Source of the DNA: Escherichia coli
GTDB lineage: Bacteria; Pseudomonadota; Gammaproteobacteria; Enterobacterales; Enterobacteriaceae
Reading direction: 5' to 3' (one strand)
DNA: 64,000 bases
NCBI RefSeq assembly: GCF_003018235.1
Contig: NZ_CP027439.1
Shown piece after piece: positions 10,631-22,952 of the stretch (its first letter is position 1; each line of letters starts with the position of its first letter). The notes beneath the pieces were generated by a model that was not told the DNA's origin, did not search any database, and saw only the letters and a program-made list of their open reading frames with translations. A program made the translations under genes and the position numbers.

Positions 10631-10924
10631 TTACGCGATCGTCTGCACGACGCTCATGCAGGAGAGATCGATAATGTCTTTGATTTTCTCTCCGAGGGCC
10701 AGATGATCAGGGGCGCGCATATAGCGCTCCCAGTCCTCCCGGGAATCGAACTCGGCAATCAGCACCACTGCCTGGGTTTCTGACCAGTCGAGTGTCTTTT
10801 CAACGCTGAAGGCTTTGATCCTCGGGACGATGGAGGGCAATTGGCGAAGGATGTCCACTACAGCAGACAGCTCGGCCTCAGTCTTACCTGGATATGTTTT
10901 GCCTATGAAAATATGTTTCAACAT
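10631..10924 (-). CDS. Dabb (stress-responsive alpha/beta-barrel) domain protein
   Basis: 97 aa with the typical size and pattern (MLKHIFIGK...AEFDSREDWERYMRAPDH). It is tightly linked to the flanking dehydrogenases. Confidence 0.7.
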   Translation of the reverse strand: MLKHIFIGKTYPGKTEAELSAVVDILRQLPSIVPRIKAFSVEKTLDWSETQAVVLIAEFDSREDWERYMRAPDHLALGEKIKDIIDLSCMSVVQTIA

Positions 10925-10935
10925 TCGGGGCTCCT

Positions 10936-11997
10936 TCAGGCATTTTTCAGCGTAGACATGTCAATAGAGAAACGATATTTGACGTCACCCTTTTCCAGGC
11001 GGACATAAGCTTCATTAATCTCCTGGATGCCGATGACTTCCACATCGGATGTGATGTTGTGCTGACCGCAGAAATCGAGCATTTCCTGCGTTTCAGCAAT
11101 CCCGCCAATAAGTGACCCGGACAGGCTACGGCCGCCAAAAATAAGGCTGTAGGCTGAGACATCAATTTTGTCAGCAGAAGCGCCAACCAGCGTCAGATTA
11201 CCTTCCGGATGCAGCATATTGAGGTAAACATTCAGATCATGTGGAGCGGATACGGTATCGAGAATAAAATCAAACGTACCGGCGTGAGCCTGCATCTCTT
11301 CCGGGTTTCGTGACACCACTACTTCATGAGCACCAACACGGAGTGCATCTTCTTTCTTGGATGGAGATGTGGTGAAGAGAACCACATGTGCGCCCAGGGC
11401 GCGGGCAAATTTTACGCCCATATGTCCTAGTCCGCCCAGACCAACGATACCCACTTTCTGACCGGCCTTTACACCCCAGCGACGGATAGGGGAATAGGCA
11501 GTGATGCCCGCACATACCAGCGGAGCAACACCTGCCAGATCGAGATTTTCCGGTACCTGAAGAACAAAATGCTCATCCACCACAATGCTTTCGGCATAAC
11601 CACCGTAGGTCACCGGAGCAGTACCGTAATTATCCGGTGAGTTATACGTCAGCACCTTGGTAGGGGAATACTGTTCACGATTCGCTTTACAGTGAGGGCA
11701 GGTTGGATCGGCATCGACCAAGCAGCCCACAGCGACAATATCGCCAGCCTTGTGTTTTGTCACCGCCGTGCCCACCGAGATAACCCGGCCTACAATTTCA
11801 TGACCCGGAACAATCGGGTAAATGGTTGGCATGGCGCTGCCGAACTCATCACGCACATGGTGAATGTCAGAGTGGCAAACCCCGCAGAACAGAATATCAA
11901 TCCGGACATCGTGCTCATTCGGATCACGACGCGGGATCGATAACGGTGCAAGTGGGGATGTTGCGGACGTGGCCGCATAAGCTTTGGTTACGTACAT
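10936..11997 (-). CDS. Zn-dependent alcohol dehydrogenase (cinnamyl-alcohol dehydrogenase group)
   Basis: GVCHSDIH, GHEIVG, CPHCKANREQY and GLGGLGH motifs. It is a paralogue of 3881-4936. Confidence 0.9.
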   Translation of the reverse strand: MYVTKAYAATSATSPLAPLSIPRRDPNEHDVRIDILFCGVCHSDIHHVRDEFGSAMPTIYPIVPGHEIVGRVISVGTAVTKHKAGDIVAVGCLVDADPTCPHCKANREQYSPTKVLTYNSPDNYGTAPVTYGGYAESIVVDEHFVLQVPENLDLAGVAPLVCAGITAYSPIRRWGVKAGQKVGIVGLGGLGHMGVKFARALGAHVVLFTTSPSKKEDALRVGAHEVVVSRNPEEMQAHAGTFDFILDTVSAPHDLNVYLNMLHPEGNLTLVGASADKIDVSAYSLIFGGRSLSGSLIGGIAETQEMLDFCGQHNITSDVEVIGIQEINEAYVRLEKGDVKYRFSIDMSTLKNA

Positions 11998-12145
11998 TCT
12001 TTGCTCCCGTTGATCCCGGCCAGAAGTGCCGGGAAGTGCGACTACTATAGGGAGCTAATTATCAATATAATAGATAGTAAATCATTGAAGCTGTTGCAAG
12101 TATTAATTGATAATAATGTGAGTTATCCTGATAGGGAAAGGCATC

Positions 12146-13105
12146 ATGCTGACAAAAGACATTCGCGCGATAGATATACTGGCGAAAGCTGTGGAACTGG
12201 GCAGCCTGCGCCAGGCCGCTCTCGCAAAAGGGGTGACCTCACAGGCCGCCAGCCAGACACTCGCTCAACTTGAAGACTCACTGGGGGTGCGCCTTCTGCA
12301 CCGCACAACTCGCAGCCTCTCTCTGACAGAGGAGGGCAGGCAACTGCTGGAAGCCACACAACCGGCACTGGCGGTACTGGACCGTGCCCTTACGCGTGCA
12401 CGGCAGGCAAAGGACGAGGTTGCCGGTCCGTTGCGTATTGTTGGTCCCCGATCGGCCTTCACACCGGTTTTATGGCCAGTCATTGACGAATACTGCCGGC
12501 GCTACCCGGACGTTCAGCCAGAAGTGCAGCTTGATGACAACGTGGGGGACTGGGTTCTTGATCGAGTGGACGTGGGGTTTCGGTTTGGTTCTCCGCCTGC
12601 AGAGGGGCTTATCGCACGCCCGCTGTTCCGTGCGCAACTGATTATCTGTGCATCACCGGCATACCTCCGCACGCATGGTGTACCCCGTTCGCTGGAGGAA
12701 CTAGCGTACCACCGCTGCAGCGTCTTTCGCCATCCGGGAACGGATGCAATATTTCCCTGGTACGTAAATATAGGGGGAGAAATCCAGACACGAGAGTTTC
12801 CTCCAACCGTGGCAACAAACAGCACAGACATAGAAGTTGAGGCCACGCTGACCGGACAGGTCATCGCACAGCTCTCATCATTGTCCTCAGCTGCGCTGAT
12901 CCGCGCAGGCCGTCTTGTGCCCTTACTAACAGAGCATGTGGCCAGCCACCTTCATCTGTACGCTTACTACGGGAGCCGCAAAGCGCAGCCGCTGCGGGTC
13001 AGAAAATTTATCGAGCTCGCCGTCGAACGGTTAACGGACAACCGGGAGCTGACTCTGACTACAGATGAACTGCAGACGTATTCTGCTGAAAGGCTGAACC
13101 AGTAA
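12146..13105 (+). CDS. LysR-family transcriptional regulator
   Basis: 319 aa, divergent from the 10936-11997 ADH operon. It shares long identical blocks with 8542-9498 (LIICASPAYLR, VDVGFR, YYGSR.AQPLR.R.FI.LAVERL). Confidence 0.9.
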   Translation: MLTKDIRAIDILAKAVELGSLRQAALAKGVTSQAASQTLAQLEDSLGVRLLHRTTRSLSLTEEGRQLLEATQPALAVLDRALTRARQAKDEVAGPLRIVGPRSAFTPVLWPVIDEYCRRYPDVQPEVQLDDNVGDWVLDRVDVGFRFGSPPAEGLIARPLFRAQLIICASPAYLRTHGVPRSLEELAYHRCSVFRHPGTDAIFPWYVNIGGEIQTREFPPTVATNSTDIEVEATLTGQVIAQLSSLSSAALIRAGRLVPLLTEHVASHLHLYAYYGSRKAQPLRVRKFIELAVERLTDNRELTLTTDELQTYSAERLNQ

Positions 13106-13725
13106 GTGACATGTACGAAAACGCCCTTTGTGAAAACAAGACGGGATTCAGATTCATAACCCAGTCAGATATGTCTGCTCCTGACACTTAGCTGACTTTT
13201 AACGGGAGAACAGCCTGGCGGGCTTATATATACAGTTATCGCAATAATTTGCGTGATTTCCTGTGCTGGGGACAATAATCCGCTCAGCACAATAATCGTT
13301 CTTAATTAGTGCCCCTCATTCATCAATCCCTCTCATCTTCTCCGCAGATCCGAAAACCTCCAGAGTAGGATCTTGTCTCACCCTACCGGCGCTGCACACC
13401 ACGACAACACAAGATGTAGCGGCTCTGTCAACTGCCTTGGCTACCAGATGTTGTGTTTATCTCTTCGTTCTGTGAGGGGCGCTGCACGCCGGAAAACGGA
13501 GCTTTGCTCAGGGCGTAATCGTGCTACACTTCCGGAAAGTCGTGAATACGTGAAAAATCGGATCACCTGAAAACCGCCATCCGTTAATTTAATCCAGTGG
13601 TTATCAGGCTGCTAATTATCAGACAAAGAAAACATCATGGCAGGGAAAGTCCTGTGTGTGATAGTCAGGTGAGTTAGCGGTGGTGAGGTAATGATTGCGG
13701 TTTGTGATTATTTATTGGAAAAGGA

Positions 13726-14070
13726 TTGCGGAAGGAATACGTGGACGAACAAAAACTTTTTGATGAGCTGAATGAGAATGGCCACCGGTTCGTGTGGTAT
13801 CTCTGCGAACCTGGTCTTGTACATCCGGACGGGATCTCCCCTGATACTCAGTTCATCGTTGATCAGAACGGGAAGGAACTGGCCCGCCGGTTAAATATTC
13901 ATGAACAGTCAGAAGATGGCTGGCGAATCGACACCTGGCACGCCAGAGATTTTGGAGGGCTGCCGGAAAGTGCTCTGAAGGTGGATTTGCATCTGCTGTT
14001 AACCCGGATTCTTATCGGAGAAACGGGTTCGATGTTTTCGTGGCCCTTTTTCCTGTCCGAAGAAGAGTGA
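13726..14070 (+). CDS. Hypothetical acidic soluble protein (about 110 aa)
   Basis: Clean ORF. The likely start is GTG 13741 (GAAGGA 4 nt upstream) rather than TTG 13726. No motif was recognised. Confidence 0.5.
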   Translation: MRKEYVDEQKLFDELNENGHRFVWYLCEPGLVHPDGISPDTQFIVDQNGKELARRLNIHEQSEDGWRIDTWHARDFGGLPESALKVDLHLLLTRILIGETGSMFSWPFFLSEEE

Positions 14071-14108
14071 TCATAATGATGGGCAGGATTTCTCTTTAAG
14101 GAAAAAAC

Positions 14109-15839
<1,731 letters not shown>

Positions 15840-16086
15840 CAGATATCAGCATTCACGGCTTGGGATGCGTGCCGTTTTACTGGCCAAACGATTGAGGAAG
15901 CTTAATGGTATGCCTTCCTCAAATCTTGATAATGGCAGTTGCTGGTCTGTACAACATGTATTGTGGACTGAGTGGAGGAAACAACGAAAATCCAGAGCCA
16001 GAATGGCATGCCCGGGTACCTAACTTTTTCAGATGCAGGGATGCGGACAGATCATAAATCTTCATGTAATGTTTCAGGAGTCAGTT

Positions 16087-16521
16087 ATGGAAAATATGAT
16101 GAAAACTATGCGTGAGTATTTCCCCACGCGAACAGTAGTGTTCGAACAGTCTCTGGATATGTTTGGTATCACCCGGGGTAAGGATGGGAAGCTCATATTT
16201 CCCCGTCATTCTGATAACCGTTTCCCGATCGGGCGTATCCGCAAACGTCTGGCAGCTTATGGCTGGCGCGGAGAACGTCTGAATCAGGAAGTAGCGCGTA
16301 TCGTCGCGGGTCCTGGTGTTCTTCCTGAAAGAAATGATTACAGCATATTTTTTCCTTACGGATGGGAACGTAACCAGCTTACCCCTGAGATGCGGAGAAT
16401 GTTTCCCCGGAAGACTGGTCGCCGCGTGCTGCTTATGCTGGATGAGCTCCATTATATTCATGACGCCGGGGAGCGTAAGTCGTTTTCACCAGAAAGTAAT
16501 GAAGCACCCGAGGTATCATGA
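16087..16521 (+). CDS. Hypothetical protein co-transcribed with the recombinase
   Basis: AGGAG lies 6 nt before ATG 16087. The stop overlaps the recombinase start (ATGA). No motif was recognised. Confidence 0.6.
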   Translation: MENMMKTMREYFPTRTVVFEQSLDMFGITRGKDGKLIFPRHSDNRFPIGRIRKRLAAYGWRGERLNQEVARIVAGPGVLPERNDYSIFFPYGWERNQLTPEMRRMFPRKTGRRVLLMLDELHYIHDAGERKSFSPESNEAPEVS

Positions 16522-17300
16522 ATTACCCTTCTCTTCCCGGACAGGCCTACGCCCCGGAAAAAGTGCATCTACCTATGGCCATCGATTACCCGGCAGCGCT
16601 GGCCCTGCGTCAGATGGCAATCGTCCAGGACGAACTGCCGAAATACCTGCTGGCCCCGGAAGTGAGCGCCCTGCTGCATTATGTCCCCGATTTGCACCGC
16701 AAGATGCTGCTGGCCACGTTGTGGAATACCGGTGCGCGCATTAACGAAGCGCTGGCCCTGACCCGGAGTGATTTTTCGCTGGTGCCACCCTACCCGTTTG
16801 TGCAACTGGCCACGCTGAAACAGCGGGCGGAAAAAGCGGCCAGAACAGCAGGAAGAACGCCTGCCGGCAGCCAGGCGCATCGCTTGGTACCGCTGTCAGA
16901 TAAACAGTACGTCAGCCAGCTGGAGATGATGGTGGCCACGCTGAAAATTCCCCTCGAACGCAGGAATAAACGTACTGGCAGAACAGAGAAAGCACGCATC
17001 TGGGAAATTACCGACCGCACGGTCCGTACCTGGCTCAGCGAAGCGGTTGAAGCGGCAGCGGCTGACGGGGTGACGTTCTCCGTGCCGGTGACACCGCATA
17101 CATTCCGTCACAGCTATGCCATGCACATGTTGTACAACGGTATTCCGCTGAAAGTGCTGCAGAGCCTGATGGGACACAAGTCAGTCAGTTCGACAGAGGT
17201 GTACACGAAGGTGTTTGCACTGGACGTAGCTGCGCGACATCGGGTGCAGTTCCTGATGCCCAGTGATGATGCTGTGGCTATGCTCAGGGGAAACACCTAA
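16518..17300 (+). CDS. Tyrosine site-specific recombinase (Rsd/ResD/XerD-like, 260 aa)
   Basis: The catalytic signature is intact: TGARINEAL (Arg), HTFRHSYAMH (HxxR), LMGHKSVSSTEVY (His...Tyr). The size and layout match plasmid multimer-resolution recombinases such as F ResD and Salmonella Rsd (from memory). Confidence 0.9.
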   Translation: MNYPSLPGQAYAPEKVHLPMAIDYPAALALRQMAIVQDELPKYLLAPEVSALLHYVPDLHRKMLLATLWNTGARINEALALTRSDFSLVPPYPFVQLATLKQRAEKAARTAGRTPAGSQAHRLVPLSDKQYVSQLEMMVATLKIPLERRNKRTGRTEKARIWEITDRTVRTWLSEAVEAAAADGVTFSVPVTPHTFRHSYAMHMLYNGIPLKVLQSLMGHKSVSSTEVYTKVFALDVAARHRVQFLMPSDDAVAMLRGNT

Positions 17301-17614: not shown

Positions 17615-17638
17615 TGGACAGAAAAACCTGAACGTCCA
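17615..17638 (+). repeat. Array site R0 (24-bp core-type motif)
   Basis: TGGACAGAA AAACCT GAACGTCCA. Confidence 0.75.
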
Positions 17639-18162
17639 ATATGGGGAAAGGATTACGTGACGGGGCGGGTTTGCTAGCAGTTCTGCGAACGTACCAGCGC
17701 ATCGAGGACTGGTAATGCCAGCAGGCTATTACGTCCGGGCTGGAAAATCGAGAGTTGCGATGATGACGAGGCAAGGGGATCGCAGACATTAACCTCTGCA
17801 ATAGAATATCTATTGCGTGATTTATTATAAATGTTATCCCTTTATTGTTTTCCAATTATCCCCGCAGTTGAAGAAATCAGCACTGAATAAAATTTTCAAA
17901 ATTTTATTCATGATGCTTACAAATAAATTAATGTAGATGAATCATCGGGATAGACTATTCTACATCAACTGCATTCTTAATTTTACGTCAAAATCAAGCG
18001 TTGCACTAAAATAAATCCTTACTAGAATAGCTATCCAGAAGAATCACCATGTATTCTTCAGTCTGACCCTCGGGCGCAGATTCTTGTTGTATTAAAATAT
18101 TGGGAAAATAAATCAGGAGTGAAAATGCAGTGACAGAGACACGTTACACAACGTCTGAAAGC

Positions 18163-18256
18163 AAAAAAGCCCTGAATAATCAGAGCTTTATTACTGGATT
18201 GGAAATGACGGCCATCAAATCCAATTCAAAACACACCAAAGGCATGTCCTCAAGTG
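18163..18256 (-). ncRNA. Candidate antisense sRNA (antitoxin) of module 1
   Basis: A minus-strand promoter reads TTGACG (18291-18286), 17-nt spacer, TATTAT (18268-18263). A minus-strand terminator has stem AAGCTCTGA/TCAGGGCTT followed by TTTTTT (plus-strand A run 18163-18168). The ends are approximate. Confidence 0.45.
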
Positions 18257-18339
18257 ATGAAGATAATAGAAAACTATTCAATCTACGTCAACCGAATGCC
18301 TGCGGTAACAATCCCAAAGCCGTTATCGGAGGTACGATT

Positions 18340-18441
18340 ATGTTGCCATTGCTCAACACGTTCATGAATGCCCCTCTTCTGAGTCAGGGGGCTACTATCC
18401 TGTTTCTTGGGCTTCTTATCCTTGCGCTCAAGAACCAGTGA
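18340..18441 (+). CDS. Candidate small hydrophobic toxin peptide, 33 aa (or 65 aa from in-frame ATG 18244)
   Basis: GGAGG lies 7 nt before the ATG. The product is MLPLLNTFMNAPLLSQGATILFLGLLILALKNQ, homologous to the 19340 peptide. A terminator hairpin (AGCTGGC-TTCG-GCCAGCT) follows. Confidence 0.5.
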   Translation: MLPLLNTFMNAPLLSQGATILFLGLLILALKNQ

Positions 18442-18475
18442 TCGCACTGAGCTGGCTTCGGCCAGCTTCTTTACT

Positions 18476-18499
18476 TGGATAGAATCACCTGAACGTCCA
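18476..18499 (+). repeat. Array site R1
   Basis: TGGATAGAA TCACCT GAACGTCCA. Confidence 0.75.
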
Positions 18500-18601
18500 G
18501 TCGGGCGCTAATTTATAATAAATGACCGTAGAAGGGCCATTTCTACGGCAAAGTTCTGGAGATGATAAAATAAGGGCCTTAAACAATAAAAGGGCTTGCT
18601 T

Positions 18602-19003
18602 ATGACACTGGACCAACTGCTTGAAATCCACGACTGCGCTGGGCTGAGCACCTATGAACAGGAAACAATTATATCTTTCATTAACCAGCGGCGAGGTGAC
18701 TTTGGTGTAAAAGCGTTTCCGGAAATTATGCCTCCAGTATCTTGCGGCTGGATCTCCAGAAGAACAAAACAACGTTCTCAGGAGCAGGCAGACGAAAATA
18801 GCTGGAATTATTATAAACAGAAGATTCAGGAATGGATAACGCTAATCGAATTGCATGAGGCATCACTTACTAGGGGGGAAAAGCTAAAGCGCTTTGTGGG
18901 AAAGCATAAATGGTGGTTAGGAGGCACTTGCGCAGTTATCGCATCAATTACAAGCACTGTGATAGCTAGCTGGATTCTTTCGTTATGGACTTGGGCTAAC
19001 TGA
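18602..19003 (+). CDS. Hypothetical tail-anchored membrane protein (133 aa), module 2
   Basis: Single ORF filling the R1-R2 interval, with a C-terminal hydrophobic helix (GGTCAVIASITSTVIASWILSLW). The stop abuts R2. Confidence 0.5.
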   Translation: MTLDQLLEIHDCAGLSTYEQETIISFINQRRGDFGVKAFPEIMPPVSCGWISRRTKQRSQEQADENSWNYYKQKIQEWITLIELHEASLTRGEKLKRFVGKHKWWLGGTCAVIASITSTVIASWILSLWTWAN

Positions 19004-19004
19004 C

Positions 19005-19028
19005 GTGACAGAAGCTGCGTTACGTCCA
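19005..19028 (+). repeat. Array site R2 (most divergent centre)
   Basis: GTGACAGAA GCTGCG TTACGTCCA. Confidence 0.55.
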
Positions 19029-19164
19029 AGTTGATAAAAAGTTGTTATCCACAGAGAACAGGGCGGTCATCCGGCGGGTTCAATAATATGATATTATTAC
19101 AGCACCTTAAAAAATAAGGATTGCGGACGGATGATATATTGATAAAGGATACTCATGCGTGTAA

Positions 19165-19262
19165 AACGCAAAATACCCTGAGTAATCAGGGTATTAAACG
19201 CGGAAAAGTAAAGGTTGAGCGCTTTACATTTTCCATTCACACCAGAGGCGTGACTAAATCTA
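19165..19262 (-). ncRNA. Candidate antisense sRNA (antitoxin) of module 3
   Basis: A minus-strand promoter reads TTGACG (19297-19292), 17-nt spacer, TAGAAT (19274-19269). A minus-strand terminator has the perfect stem AATACCCTGA/TCAGGGTATT followed by TTTTGCGTTTT. The ends are approximate. Confidence 0.45.
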
Positions 19263-19339
19263 AAATTGATTCTACGGCAACGTTCAATCTACGTCAAATC
19301 GCCAATGGTTTTCCTGTTATGAAAATTACCGGAGGCTTC

Positions 19340-19450
19340 ATGTTGTTAACCATCATCGACACCTATCTTCATGCTTCATTACTGACACAGATACTGGTAA
19401 TCCCGTTTATCTGTGCGGTGGTGTGGGCGGTAAAGAAAATCCGGGTATAA
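19340..19450 (+). CDS. Candidate small hydrophobic toxin peptide, 36 aa (or 66 aa from in-frame GTG 19250)
   Basis: GGAGG lies 5 nt before the ATG. The product is MLLTIIDTYLHASLLTQILVIPFICAVVWAVKKIRV. A 12-bp-stem terminator follows (AACATGGCTGGC...GCCAGCCATGTT). Confidence 0.5.
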   Translation: MLLTIIDTYLHASLLTQILVIPFICAVVWAVKKIRV

Positions 19451-19503
19451 CTTAAACATGGCTGGCTGAGAGGCCAGCCATGTTCAGTGAGTTTTGTTTC
19501 GAA

Positions 19504-19527
19504 TGGACAGAATAACCTGAATGTCCA
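19504..19527 (+). repeat. Array site R3 (consensus copy)
   Basis: TGGACAGAA TAACCT GAATGTCCA. Confidence 0.8.
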
Positions 19528-19645
19528 AGTTTGCAAGGAATTGTGATCGTACTACAACCAGTGTCAACCTTCCTATAATGCAGATAATCTTCTATAATTT
19601 CTTTTAATTCTGTGGCGATGTCATTAAGGAAAAGAGGTATTATTT

Positions 19646-19903
19646 ATGGGAAATAAACACATCAGCGCCAGTGAAGCTAAAAAGATTAGTTCTTCAGTGA
19701 TACCTGATGCAGACAAAACACTTGATATGATATTTGGAGGAATAAAGCTCCAAGCAAGATTGGGCCAGACATCCTTTATTTATCCTGTCCATGAAAACAT
19801 TCTTGAGCAAGTGGTCAAGGTTCTAAGGGAATCTGGTTATAGGATTAACTCATCGAAGGCTAATGAGAATAACAAATTTATTATTGAAATTAGCTGGCAG
19901 TGA
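19646..19903 (+). CDS. Hypothetical soluble protein (85 aa), module 4
   Basis: AGAGG lies upstream of the ATG. Two perfect TATAAT hexamers lie at 19574 and 19593. A terminator (AAGCCAC...GTGGCTTTTTTT) sits just before R4. Confidence 0.55.
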   Translation: MGNKHISASEAKKISSSVIPDADKTLDMIFGGIKLQARLGQTSFIYPVHENILEQVVKVLRESGYRINSSKANENNKFIIEISWQ

Positions 19904-19961
19904 AATAGAATCCGCTTTGTCTTTATTTTACCCTTGAAGCCACCCATTAGTGTGGCTTTTT

Positions 19962-19985
19962 TTGACAAGATTACCTGAATGTCCA
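19962..19985 (+). repeat. Array site R4
   Basis: TTGACAAGA TTACCT GAATGTCCA. Confidence 0.7.
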
Positions 19986-19998
19986 GGTAACGCGGGGA

Positions 19999-20445
19999 TT
20001 AATGAGAAGAATAGGTAGTTGGTATATTTAGCTTGAGTCCAATCTCCTTTATGAGATTGTAGGTATTTTCCTTACTGTTGCCAGCAAGTATTGAGGTGAT
20101 CTCATTAAGGTTTTGTGCTGCACCAAGAACTTCACCCTTTGATGGTACAAACTTCATACCTAAATAGCTTCTTTTTAGGCTACCAGGCAAGGCTGCATAC
20201 TTTGCCATTAACTGAGAAGCAGCATCTTTCAAATCGTGGATGGTTTCATGATTAGCTCTGAAATTTGTGATCGTCGCTTGCTCACGTAATAAAAGCGCTG
20301 TAATCCTCCCTAATTGTTCTCTGAATGATATATAAGGCTCAATGAATCTTTTTGCGATGAGTTGACCAACAACAAAAACGGTTACGCCGGTCAGAACAGT
20401 TACGGCAGCAGACGAACTCATAATTGTACCTAGTGACTGAATCAT
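19999..20445 (-). CDS. Hypothetical N-terminally membrane-anchored protein (148 aa), module 5; reversed relative to the sites
   Basis: One N-terminal TM helix (AAVTVLTGVTVFVVGQLIA) followed by a helical soluble part. It is the only long ORF between R4 and R5. Confidence 0.55.
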   Translation of the reverse strand: MIQSLGTIMSSSAAVTVLTGVTVFVVGQLIAKRFIEPYISFREQLGRITALLLREQATITNFRANHETIHDLKDAASQLMAKYAALPGSLKRSYLGMKFVPSKGEVLGAAQNLNEITSILAGNSKENTYNLIKEIGLKLNIPTTYSSH

Positions 20446-20482
20446 GGGGGTTATCCTATCTGGAGGGCAACAGCCTGTCTAC

Positions 20483-20506
20483 TGTACAGAAAATGCTGTA
20501 TGTCCA
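20483..20506 (+). repeat. Array site R5
   Basis: TGTACAGAA AATGCT GTATGTCCA. Confidence 0.6.
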
Positions 20507-20562
20507 GTCTGTGCTGGAATTATAATGGCAACCATGATCATCACAGGAAGAACGAGTAACAG

Positions 20563-21042
20563 ATGGCAACTGCGTGGGTGGATGTGGCTGATAATGCCGT
20601 AAAAATAGGTTTGGGGTCGTTGTTGACTATTTTAGGGGGGTGGCTGACTCTTAAGCTAACACAAAAGCACGAATTAAAAAAAGAAGCGGCAGTACAGGGA
20701 TTAAAAGATAAAGAAATAAAAACCAAACGATATGTGGAGTTTCTGACCTTGTCTCAATCTCTCATGCAAAAATATTTATATGAGCAGTGTGAAGCAAATA
20801 ACGATGATTATCTTGCCTATCTTCGCATACATAATGAGATAACGATCACGTCAGGTTTAGCCATAAGGAAAGCAGCATTTAAACTCCAGTTTGATGTTTC
20901 TACTTTCATTTTCTACAACAAAATACACGACACAGAACTCATTAATGCACTGAGGGATAAGGCTAGAAATTCTGTTTCCATGTTTCAGGCCATTGTGAAT
21001 GAGGAAATCTGCAACGGAAAGTTTGGCACAGCAAGCCAGTAG
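20563..21042 (+). CDS. Hypothetical N-terminally membrane-anchored protein (159 aa), module 6
   Basis: N-terminal TM helix (IGLGSLLTILGGWLTL), a Lys-rich linker, then a helical domain. The stop lies 4 nt before R6. Confidence 0.55.
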   Translation: MATAWVDVADNAVKIGLGSLLTILGGWLTLKLTQKHELKKEAAVQGLKDKEIKTKRYVEFLTLSQSLMQKYLYEQCEANNDDYLAYLRIHNEITITSGLAIRKAAFKLQFDVSTFIFYNKIHDTELINALRDKARNSVSMFQAIVNEEICNGKFGTASQ

Positions 21043-21045
21043 CGC

Positions 21046-21069
21046 TGGGCAGAATAACCTGAATGTTTA
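21046..21069 (+). repeat. Array site R6
   Basis: TGGGCAGAA TAACCT GAATGTTTA. Confidence 0.7.
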
Positions 21070-21118
21070 ACTGCCGGAGGAATTAACCGAGGGGCGTGAA
21101 AAGGCCGCTTACGCGGCC

Positions 21119-21229
21119 TCAGTTTTCTCTTGAACTCCTGAAGTCTATGTAGTCGATAAACTCAAGAATATAGTAGGCAATCACGCCTGTACCTACATAG
21201 ATAGCTCCGAATATCAGTGACTCACTCAT
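21119..21229 (-). CDS. Candidate 36-aa hydrophobic peptide
   Basis: AGGAG lies 9 nt before the ATG. The product is MSESLIFGAIYVGTGVIAYYILEFIDYIDFRSSREN. The stop is followed by the hairpin GAGGCCGCGTAAGCGGCCTTTT. The ORF is below the 60-aa cutoff of the ORF track. Confidence 0.4.
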   Translation of the reverse strand: MSESLIFGAIYVGTGVIAYYILEFIDYIDFRSSREN

Positions 21230-21266: not shown

Positions 21267-21491
21267 CCGCAAGCCAGATCCCTCGCATCCAGTATAACCG
21301 GACTTACTCCACTGCAGTTTCAGAAACAACTACGTCTACAGGAAGCCAGACGATTGATGTTACGAGGTTCAGATGCCAGTATTGCCGGGTACAACGTTGG
21401 ATATGAAAGCACAAGTCAGTTCTCCCGGGAATATAGACGTTACTTCGGCTATCCCCCCAAAAAGGACATTGCACGATTACGCGAAACATAA
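21267..21491 (+). pseudogene. 3' remnant of an AraC/XylS-family regulator gene (last ~74 codons)
   Basis: The translation [56 protein letters not shown] is the second HTH of AraC-type regulators. There is no start codon or N-terminal domain. Confidence 0.65.
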
Positions 21492-21527: not shown

Positions 21528-21551
21528 AGGATAGAACACCCTGAACATCTC
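21528..21551 (+). repeat. Array site R7 (terminal, right arm degenerate)
   Basis: AGGATAGAA CACCCT GAACATCTC. Confidence 0.5.
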
Positions 21552-21653: not shown

Positions 21654-21941
21654 TCACCTCATTCGTTCGCTGGCAAGATTATAAACATCACTACGTTCAC
21701 GTTTCCCTACAGCAACAACAGCGATAACTAATTGATCATCAATCACCTGATAAACCAGGCGGAAGCCAGACGCACGAAGTTTAATTTTGTAGCAATCCTT
21801 TATCCCACGCAGTTTTGCTGATGGGATATGTGGATTTTCACTGCACTTCTTTAGCTTTTTAGCAAACTGCTGCTGAATTGCCTTATCCAGTTTTTGCCAT
21901 TCTTTCAGTGCATCTTCCCTGAATCTGACTGTGTAAGTCAT
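21654..21941 (-). CDS. stbE: RelE/StbE-family mRNA interferase toxin
   Basis: 95 aa. ALKEWQKL...LRG.KDCYKIKLR.SG.RLVYQVID...VGKRERS.VY matches RelE closely. It overlaps the upstream antitoxin gene by 4 nt. Confidence 0.9.
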   Translation of the reverse strand: MTYTVRFREDALKEWQKLDKAIQQQFAKKLKKCSENPHIPSAKLRGIKDCYKIKLRASGFRLVYQVIDDQLVIAVVAVGKRERSDVYNLASERMR

Positions 21942-22189
21942 AGGTAGCTATCCAGATCTACATCGTGCAGCTTCTGGTTGCTGCGTTCGGCGACCAGATT
22001 AACCAGTTCCTGATCGTCTAGGGCATCGAGCATCTTTTCATACAGTTCTGCGGGGACACAGTAAAAGGCGGGCTGGTTACGGTTCAGAATCGCGACTGGG
22101 TAACCATCACCGGCACTGACTGTCGCCATCGGGTTTTTTTTCAGTTCGCTGACACTGGCGCTAGTGTCACTCAGAATAATGTGGGGCAT
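21938..22189 (-). CDS. stbD: Phd/YefM/StbD-family antitoxin
   Basis: 83 aa with a Phd-type N-terminus (SVSELKKNPMATV). It is translationally coupled to the toxin gene. Confidence 0.85.
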   Translation of the reverse strand: MPHIILSDTSASVSELKKNPMATVSAGDGYPVAILNRNQPAFYCVPAELYEKMLDALDDQELVNLVAERSNQKLHDVDLDSYL

Positions 22190-22316: not shown

Positions 22317-22412
22317 TAATAGGACCCCGAAAGGATTAGTAATGTGGCGTCTTTGCTACACAGGTGCTTTTGTAATATGTTGTATAGCGTACTCACTACA
22401 CAGGAGATGTGT

Positions 22413-22952
22413 ATGGCATTGTCACAGATCAGCGTTCGTATTGATGATGAACTCAAACAACGCACGGATGAAAAAATGAAACTGCTGAGAACCAACCCCA
22501 CGCAGGCCATTACGTTGCTCTATCAGTATATTGCTGAAAATGGGAAACTTCCCTTTACTGTCAGCACCCAACTCTTCACTTCAGAGGATTACACCCAAAA
22601 ATTAATCACCACAGTCAGATCTATTTATGAATACTGGCGCGCGCTTTCTGAGACATCAGCAACAACCAGAACGAAAAGTGGAATGGCCTATTCAATGGCA
22701 ATGGCAGCACATGTTTCGAAGCTGCACAGCGATCTGATACACAACTGCGGCACCTTGAGTGGTGAAGAAGTTGCCTCATTAATGATTGTTATGGAGGACA
22801 TTCTTTCTACGCCGCCATCTTTTTATCGCGGAGAAGCGCCCGATCAGGTGTTTCAGGATAAATTAAACGCTGCTGACCAAACTATTCTGATGATTGAAAA
22901 ATGTCATGGTATGAATGTTCAACGCGGGGAAAATTTTTACGCTCTCAGATGA
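22413..22952 (+). CDS. RelB/DinJ-like ribbon-helix-helix protein with a ~120-aa C-terminal extension
   Basis: The N-terminus MALSQISVRIDDELKQRTDEKMKLLRTNPTQAITLLYQYIAENGKLPF is DinJ/RelB-like. CAGGAG lies 6 nt before ATG 22413. There is no adjacent toxin ORF. Confidence 0.6.
   Translation: MALSQISVRIDDELKQRTDEKMKLLRTNPTQAITLLYQYIAENGKLPFTVSTQLFTSEDYTQKLITTVRSIYEYWRALSETSATTRTKSGMAYSMAMAAHVSKLHSDLIHNCGTLSGEEVASLMIVMEDILSTPPSFYRGEAPDQVFQDKLNAADQTILMIEKCHGMNVQRGENFYALR

Follow-up and report, generated by a model that had tools for sequence, protein, structure and literature searches.

What kind of cargo is kept in the array of short modules that follows a ResD-family tyrosine recombinase on a plasmid of Escherichia coli, where three of the four longer proteins are small and predicted to be held in the membrane by a single helix? 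The array lies within a stretch of 64,000 nt (contig NZ_CP027439.1; this whole stretch is hereafter termed the window), which was identified as an F-type conjugative plasmid, with Rfam matches to the traJ leader, FinP and sok. An earlier note, made from the sequence alone, had read the membrane proteins of modules 2, 5 and 6 (M2, M5 and M6) as cargo for exclusion, abortive infection or addiction, in the company of type I toxin-antitoxin loci; the positions to which it refers, 18602-21042, span modules 2 to 6 of the array. At a probability of roughly 45%, we consider M2, M5 and M6 to be stand-alone conflict genes that act at the inner membrane and travel as mobile cassettes, a function deduced from association.

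The array is marked by a 24-nt imperfect dyad, TGGACAGAATAACCTGAATGTCCA, which in parts reads TGGACAGAA-N6-GAAYGTCCA and is repeated 3' of the recombinase in one orientation; with up to three mismatches allowed, four matches were obtained against 0.00 expected. With a weight matrix built from related sequences, six sites were located in the window, together with a decayed seventh at the boundary between modules 2 and 3 (Table 1). The sites enclose short modules with one gene each, about 0.5 kb in length. The sites behave as hybrids, positions 1-10 moving with the left and positions 11-24 with the right module, which is the trace that would be expected from a crossover at the site centre. Most sites are followed at a distance of about 10 nt, on their right, by a conserved GGAATTA/GGGATTA-like element that also moves with the right-hand module and may serve either as an accessory site for binding or as a promoter element of the -10 type; the corresponding regions in the window are 17639-17660, 18500-18520, 19528-19548, 19986-20006, 20507-20527 and 21070-21090.

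Further arrays were collected from the surroundings of recombinase relatives at 78 genome loci, from contigs encoding homologues of M5 and M6, and from 72 viral and metagenome contigs with the motif, and modules were defined by cutting at the weight-matrix sites. In this way, 164 modules from about 40 arrays were grouped into 85 cassette families (median length about 570 bp over all 164 modules), with up to eight sites per array that were invariably co-oriented. The main open reading frames (ORFs) of the cassettes lie on either strand, and the modules possess promoter- and terminator-like signals. The arrays are combinatorial: module 5 occurred with seven combinations of neighbours, the M4 cassette was found seven times in the sample, and the M6 family is represented in the pool by at least four divergent versions. 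A homologue of M2 occurs alone in a 553-nt cassette (locus L113), and M2 and module 3 were therefore formerly separate modules. In Salmonella plasmids, these sites also enclose a homologue of M5 (75-77% identity), with the gene-to-site orientation unchanged and an Abi_2 cassette directly adjoining it, and in a Serratia chromosome a homologue of M6 is likewise bounded by sites. An IncX4 plasmid carries M4, M5 and M6 in succession at about 99% identity within a five-site array, the recombinase of which is only 46% identical to that of the window; the full arrangement of the window was carried by no plasmid found. Judged by this distribution of sequences, the modules are discrete gene cassettes that each move on their own and belong to a common pool.

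The presumed enzyme of the array is orthologous to protein D (ResD) of the F plasmid, which is encoded by the gene following ccdB and with which it shares 86% identity over 252 residues (E = 2e-160). Array site 1 starts 315 nt past its stop codon, and many independent arrays have a recombinase of the ResD family just 5' of their first site. In 10 loci the gene is located 99-450 nt upstream of the first site and co-oriented with it, and in about 14 more loci it is nearby; a distance of some 2.8-3.0 kb applies to about 10 loci besides the first 10, and in the IncX4 type the gene is divergent and 266 nt away. Since it adjoins the first site across these loci, we infer that the ResD-family recombinase is the best candidate for the enzyme that acts on the array.

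The published target of ResD is rfsF, a 28-bp site of the form AGATCCGNAA-N8-TTNCGGATCT, at which recombination fuses and resolves whole plasmids (PMC8299605), and a connection has been drawn between the rfsF/ResD locus and the swapping of gene sets by IncI1 and IncR plasmids (PMC8004404, PMC9412624). The window contains a single rfsF-like sequence, a degenerate copy 5' of the recombinase operon, and F has a perfect rfsF at the equivalent place upstream of ccdA. In F, the 24-nt motif is present only as a decayed copy 298 nt after resD. This copy had first suggested that the 24-nt sites are rfsF, which was rejected because rfsF, as published, has 28 bp and another sequence. Also rejected as a member of the same family was the recombinase next to mcr-10 ("xerC", PMC7067168), which would have connected the array with colistin resistance but has 331 aa and only the catalytic motif in common; an mcr-like ORF after the recombinase was found in none of the 78 loci. 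A search of the literature on ResD/rfsF, the motif string, cassettes, defence and hotspots, with subscription journals outside its coverage, identified no description of an array of small cassettes.

The earlier descriptions of the individual proteins were borne out when hydropathy was taken as the strongest 19-residue Kyte-Doolittle window. M2 (133 aa) has a C-terminal anchor, whereas M5 (148 aa, from a reversed gene) has an N-terminal one. In M6 (159 aa) an N-terminal hydrophobic segment of borderline hydropathy is followed by the Lys-rich stretch KLTQKHELKKEAAVQGLKDKEIKTKR and by an all-helical four-helix domain, as also seen in its AlphaFold model, and the 85-aa protein of module 4 (M4) lacks any hydrophobic window and is soluble. 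Homologues of the three membrane proteins were exclusively enterobacterial and formed nine clusters for M2 (44-98% identity), 26 for M5 (down to 56% identity) and 59 for M6. The proteins occurred on 92, 71 and 389 PLSDB plasmids, respectively, and 85-92% of the plasmids carrying M2, M5 or M6 are predicted to be conjugative. M2 matched phrog_34759 (3.5e-29) and M5 matched phrog_7512 (2e-46), while the PHROG matches of M4 were weak only. The pairwise ratio of nonsynonymous to synonymous substitution rates (dN/dS) was 0.15-0.20 for M6, 0.28-0.38 for M5 and 0.45 for M2, and that of M4 was 0.61; all four module ORFs are thus under purifying selection (dN/dS 0.15-0.61), and because they also belong to conserved families of homologues, they are real genes. 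In the alignments of M6 and M5, residues are invariant across homologues at 42-57% protein identity, among them a C-terminal PTTY motif in M5.

The AlphaFold models of M5 and M6 (mean predicted local distance difference test, pLDDT, 84.5 and 80.6, respectively) begin with a long helix at the N-terminus that continues into an up-down four-helix bundle. The positive-inside rule would place the folded domain of every membrane protein in the cytoplasm, which applies to the predicted four-helix domain of M5 as well as to the N-terminal domain of M2. Searches of the PDB by sequence with the membrane proteins returned nothing, and their fold matches were generic helix bundles; confident matches to housekeeping functions, which the earlier note had named as evidence against its idea together with a lack of ORF conservation, were not obtained, and the families are conserved. 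A profile search with M6 over 1.84 billion representatives yielded 248 relatives, the distant ones of which match only the first 55 or so residues (W.DVAD.AVKIGLG...) and have no Pfam domain above threshold. The N-terminal segment is the most conserved part of the protein. As distant relatives share only this part, the segment appears to be the conserved core of M6, which suggests that it does more than anchor the protein.

Several assignments of the membrane proteins were considered and discarded. The M6 family is widely labelled 'peptidase M14' in public annotation, which resembles a propagated mis-annotation; we reject the label for M6, given that neither Pfam nor NCBIfam gave a match, Pfam was empty in 59 of 59 homologues and the model is a helix bundle. 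M5 and M6 were likewise rejected as abortive-infection proteins of the HEPN type, with no match to Pfam HEPN and no Rx4-6H among the invariant residues. The idea that M5 and M6 share an origin with each other and with the 217-aa protein encoded to the left of the recombinase was rejected as well, as the comparison of their profiles gave probabilities of 0.06-0.4%. The earlier note had attributed the same design to these three proteins, and this stands for their architecture but not for homology.

The 217-aa protein is one of the observations that connect the locus to conflict. Its gene is interrupted by an IS3-family element (14582-15839; 3-bp duplication, cag), and joining 14109-14581 to 15843-16023 after removal of the element gives exactly 217 codons, as the earlier note had stated. 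A hydrophobic segment extends over approximately residues 22-42 of the repaired protein, which matches phrog_33426 and, with E = 5.2e-39 over profile positions 6-185 of 203, the PADLOC family PDC-S67. The latter is a defence candidate family only, and no paper mentioning PDC-S67 was found. The segment from the rfsF copy to the recombinase (13346-16521) comprises a 114-aa ORF, this split gene and a 162-aa ORF (phrog_26837), which overlaps the start codon of the recombinase. In F, ccdAB occupies the position held here by the 217-aa gene, between the rfsF-like site and resD. The slot adjoining resD therefore looks likewise exchangeable, as F has ccdAB where the window has other ORFs.

The pool pointed in the same direction. 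Among the 73 cargo proteins scanned, AbiD/Abi_2 (three families), HEPN_RiboL-PSP, DUF4145, FRG, DUF2971, T5orf172, a DpnII-MboI-like nuclease, an HNH effector, a Shedu SduA-like protein, the defence candidates PDC-S15 and PDC-M68A, and the toxin-antitoxin components ParE/Phd, PemK and RelB were recognised, while all single-pass membrane proteins and most of the remainder gave no match. In addition, relatives of the membrane proteins occur as accessory genes of prophages and phage-plasmids. Those of M6 are morons on the opposite strand in P2-like prophages, between the baseplate-spike and tail-completion genes. M6 had no match in GenBank phage genomes. In the P1-like phage-plasmid D6, a relative of M5 has humD on one side and phd/doc on the other, further ones are found in 48-kb phage-plasmids, and a relative of M2 is present in a Klebsiella phage-plasmid. 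The modules are taken as conflict-related because of the pool, their neighbours (Abi_2 beside M5), the PDC-S67 match and these phage-borne relatives. The suggestion of exclusion, abortive-infection or addiction cargo thus gained support by association, from the pool, from PDC-S67, from the phage relatives and from modules 1 and 3.

Modules 1 and 3 align with each other, sharing an exact block of 15 nt, and show the predicted anatomy of type I toxin-antitoxin loci, as the earlier note had proposed. Both contain a hydrophobic ORF of 33-43 aa, and an RNA of about 95 nt predicted on the opposite strand spans its leader. In module 1, the putative antisense RNA of about 95 nt extends over approximately 18160-18257 on the minus strand, with a promoter-like site at 18291-18263 and a terminator at 18189-18166; in module 3, it covers about 19166-19263, with the promoter at 19297-19269 and the terminator at 19195-19172, also on the minus strand. 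Each is predicted to fold into three hairpins, which are conserved between the two (fold z = -5.3 and -6.2, respectively). Rfam gave no match over the array, modules 1 and 3 included, at either gathering or permissive thresholds. A third variant of this locus was seen in a metagenome locus (L135).

The claim that small membrane proteins dominate the cargo was valid for this array, where they account for three of the four longer proteins and are joined by two small hydrophobic peptides, but did not extend to the pool, where about 30% of the families qualify. Depending on the hydropathy cut-off, 24 (1.6) to 28 (1.5) of the approximately 80 coding families have a predicted membrane helix; at 1.5, these make up 61 of 157 occurrences and include a few false positives among known soluble proteins. 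If such proteins make up about 0.3 of the pool, finding three of them in a set of four is not beyond chance (P ~0.08).

In the proposed mechanism, the recombinase would excise a module as a circle via two direct sites and would insert it again wherever a site of this kind is present. Each of modules 2, 5 and 6 would contribute one self-expressed gene for a small protein, held in the inner membrane by its single helix with the helical domain facing the cytoplasm. As conflict genes acting at the inner membrane, they might block incoming phage or plasmid DNA, resulting in superinfection exclusion, or they might cause the membrane to collapse upon infection, resulting in abortive infection. Small prophage-encoded membrane proteins that block phage DNA entry are represented by HK97 gp15, lactococcal Sie2009 and T4 Imm and Sp. 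Like these, the module proteins are in the range of about 80-170 aa with a single membrane helix and are encoded by stand-alone genes with accessory carriage as morons, but M2, M5 and M6 have neither sequence similarity nor specific fold similarity to them. Taken together, the sequence evidence makes the three proteins good candidates for new defence or exclusion genes.

Several results weigh against this explanation. M2, M4, M5 and M6 had no match in PADLOC (PADLOC-DB 2.0, E up to 0.1), Pfam or NCBIfam, and nothing was found below E = 0.01 in a viral fold library. About three quarters of the pool proteins are without a recognised domain, which makes guilt by association weak. The sites of the array are not canonical 28-bp rfsF and differ from this experimentally defined target of ResD, so that the assignment of the recombinase has adjacency as its sole basis. 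Moreover, about 13 contigs that were selected by their sites and have at least 3.5 kb of upstream flank contain no ResD-family recombinase; these may be orphan arrays.

Other functions have to be weighed against a role in conflict at the inner membrane. The membrane proteins would be addiction toxins if they served selfish stabilisation as membrane-damaging proteins that low expression or an antisense RNA not yet recognised keeps in check and that, as with hok-type toxins, kill the cell upon loss of the cassette or the plasmid. This appears unlikely. It would fit the type I anatomy of modules 1 and 3 in the same array, the presence of ParE/Phd, PemK and RelB in the pool and flank, the relative of M5 that adjoins phd/doc in D6, and the position of the 217-aa gene, which is that of ccdAB in F. 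However, modules 5 and 6 are each nearly filled by one gene of 148-159 aa, far above the size of known type I toxins; they have no partner ORF, an antisense promoter/terminator pair as in modules 1 and 3 was not found in them, and the well-folded cytoplasmic bundles predicted by the models would be unlike simple pore peptides. Modules that are variably present, are located in the replication/partition region instead of the transfer operon, and recur on unrelated MPF_F and MPF_T systems as well as in a chromosome and in prophages make a housekeeping or transfer role of the plasmid (entry exclusion of related plasmids, modulation of mating or adaptation of the envelope to the carried plasmid) very unlikely, even though known entry-exclusion proteins are small inner-membrane proteins, 85-92% of the carrier plasmids are predicted to be conjugative, and the window itself belongs to a conjugative plasmid of the F type.

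A further alternative is suggested by rAID-1 of Bacteroidales, in which an XerD-like recombinase of the XerD family and repeated intergenic sequences accompany arrays of small acquired conflict genes (10.1101/471110). By analogy, the module proteins would be orphan immunity proteins that protect from toxins with which competitors target the membrane, for instance colicins, contact-dependent toxins or type VI effectors. That the cassettes are single small genes without partners, that M6 exists in the divergent versions which a diversification of specificity would give, and that a membrane location suits protection from pore formers are in line with this possibility. We nevertheless regard it as quite unlikely: none of the 73 pool proteins belongs to a recognised immunity family, the recognisable cargo consists of Abi, HEPN, nuclease and toxin-antitoxin genes, the predicted topology places the folded domains in the cytoplasm, and relatives inside phage genomes fit a phage-related conflict better. 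The two systems also differ in phylum, recombinase and repeats, and rAID genes are co-directional and provide toxin immunity, whereas the recognisable cargo of the present array is anti-phage and toxin-antitoxin genes. Finally, the absence of known domains and the occurrence of very short modules without an ORF in some arrays might point to non-functional passengers or chance frames in recombination debris. This explanation is close to refuted by dN/dS values well below 1, by the residues kept invariant at 42-57% protein identity, by the confident AlphaFold models and by the presence of the modules on tens to hundreds of plasmids.

The known systems closest to the array are integrons, the dif modules of Acinetobacter and rAID-1. 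In integrons, a tyrosine recombinase also lies beside an array of small, mostly single-gene cassettes with recombination sites between them. The combinatorial order of the cassettes and the compact defence and toxin-antitoxin cargo are further common traits, and sedentary integrons store anti-phage cassettes (10.1101/2024.07.02.601686). However, the recombinase of the window is not IntI (NCBIfam integrase_gron, 63.1 bits against a cut-off of 265; PRK15417, 49 against 435), and its sites are 24-nt imperfect dyads of the duplex type, as opposed to attC sites, which are folded hairpins formed by imperfect palindromes of 57-141 nt. In addition, the cassettes occur here in both orientations with promoters of their own, while integron cassettes are promoterless and co-oriented; a common Pc promoter is unneeded because the cassettes carry their own promoter-like signals. 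In the dif (pdif) modules of Acinetobacter, short tyrosine-recombinase sites also bound modules that occur in many plasmid contexts and often contain toxin-antitoxin genes (PMC9455709). These modules rely on 28-bp sites (11-6-11) of the host XerC/XerD in alternating orientation, whereas every site of the array points the same way, and the recombinase to which the sites are linked is of the ResD family and encoded on the plasmid. We take TGGACAGAATAACCTGAATGTCCA to bear no resemblance to dif, no scan for dif having been made. By their defining features, the array is neither an integron nor a set of dif modules. With the cointegrate resolution system ResD/rfsF it has in common the recombinase and the degenerate rfsF upstream, as in F, but not the sites.

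A wider interpretation is that M2, M5 and M6 represent three unrelated new families of single-gene anti-phage or anti-plasmid defence at the inner membrane and that the 24-nt array beside ResD-family recombinases is an unrecognised integron-like system, through which compact genes for defence and addiction pass between enterobacterial plasmids (IncF, IncX4 and others) and, on occasion, reach chromosomes; we regard this combination as doubtful, if conceivable. If true, the arrays would form a catalogue of very small, self-contained conflict genes on resistance-spreading plasmids of E. coli, Salmonella and Klebsiella, in which 85 cassette families, most of them without a known domain, have come from a small sample. 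The 24-nt site would be a new genomic marker for the discovery of defence genes, part of the so far unexplained variable region that F-like and IncX4 plasmids have beside their genes for replication and partition would be accounted for, and a recombinase known for resolving plasmid fusions would also run an exchange of cassettes. The membrane proteins would then be candidates for new exclusion mechanisms, with relevance to phage therapy against plasmid-bearing strains.

Table 1. Positions of the array sites, modules and neighbouring features in the window. Hydropathy is the strongest 19-residue Kyte-Doolittle window; scores are those of the site weight matrix.
Feature	Position	Strand	Basis or remark
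Degenerate copy of the canonical 28-bp rfsF, AGATCCGAAAACCTCCAGAGTAGGATCT	13346..13373	+	3 mismatches to AGATCCGNAA-N8-TTNCGGATCT
IS-disrupted gene, 217 aa, N-terminal hydrophobic segment	14109..16023 (coding 14109-14581, 15843-16023)	+	Repair and translation
ResD-family tyrosine recombinase, 260 aa, presumed array enzyme	16518..17300	+	Pfam Phage_integrase, 7e-19
Array site 1, TGGACAGAAAAACCTGAACGTCCA	17615..17638	+	Score 36.9
Module 1, type I toxin-antitoxin-like locus	17639..18475	+	Hydrophobic ORF 18340-18441, 33 aa, hydropathy 2.02
Array site 2	18476..18499	+	Score 34.3
Module 2 gene, 133-aa tail-anchored membrane protein	18602..19003	+	Hydropathy 1.92, residues 110-128
Decayed site at the boundary of modules 2 and 3, GTGACAGAAGCTGCGTTACGTCCA	19005..19028	+	Score 10.3, both arms kept
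Module 3, type I toxin-antitoxin-like locus, homologous to module 1	19029..19503	+	Hydrophobic ORF 19319-19450
Array site 4, exact consensus	19504..19527	+	Score 39.9
Module 4 gene, 85-aa soluble protein	19646..19903	+	No hydrophobic window
Array site 5	19962..19985	+	Score 27.0; in other arrays, module 4 is accompanied by the left arm, TTGACAAGAT
Module 5 gene, 148-aa N-terminally anchored membrane protein	19999..20445	-	Hydropathy 2.06, residues 13-31
Array site 6	20483..20506	+	Score 27.4; in other arrays, module 6 is accompanied by the centre, AAATGCTGT
Module 6 gene, 159 aa	20563..21042	+	Hydropathy 1.54, residues 12-30 (borderline)
Array site 7, last strong site	21046..21069	+	Score 29.9
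36-aa hydrophobic ORF just past the last strong site, MSESLIFGAIYVGTGVIAYYILEFIDYIDFRSSREN	21119..21229	-	ORF list

Beyond the last strong site, the 36-aa hydrophobic ORF is flanked by a bidirectional terminator-like hairpin (21102-21119). It had no family match and may be another small membrane peptide by prediction. It is followed by the C-terminal remnant of an AraC-type regulator (21354-21491, a pseudogene) and by a weak decayed site at 21528 (score 9.1), and the two suggest that the array formerly reached the RelE/Phd pair at 21654-22189. This ParE/Phd pair is also found as a site-bounded cassette in another locus (L079). The subsequent gene (22344-22952, plus strand) encodes a protein of 202 aa in which a RelB/DinJ-like N-terminus is combined with a long additional C-terminal domain, and four cassette families of the pool (MATINARIDDD...) share this RelB/DinJ-like design with differing C-terminal halves. 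On the other side of the recombinase, an Rfam match to isrC (130 bits, 14650-14772) falls inside the IS3-family element and thus belongs to the insertion sequence and not to the plasmid backbone.

The commonest cassette of the sample, which is absent from the window, was encountered 18 times (L096 6583-6953 and 17 other loci). It has 394 bp and encodes, on the minus strand, a soluble glycine-rich protein of 71 aa that resembles stress proteins of the KGG type. In a Serratia chromosome, a four-site array with the same motif is located near proBA-crl (L164 5791-9257) with no recombinase within 7 kb, and is an orphan comparable to attC clusters that lack an integrase. Other relatives of the recombinase precede different short repeats at cassette-like spacing, namely GTCATAACATG, ACCACTATAGA and TACTCATTTG (L034/L044 ~11131-13237, L040 10785-12667 and L069/L070 ~10842-12297), and the recombinase family may thus run arrays with other site sequences.

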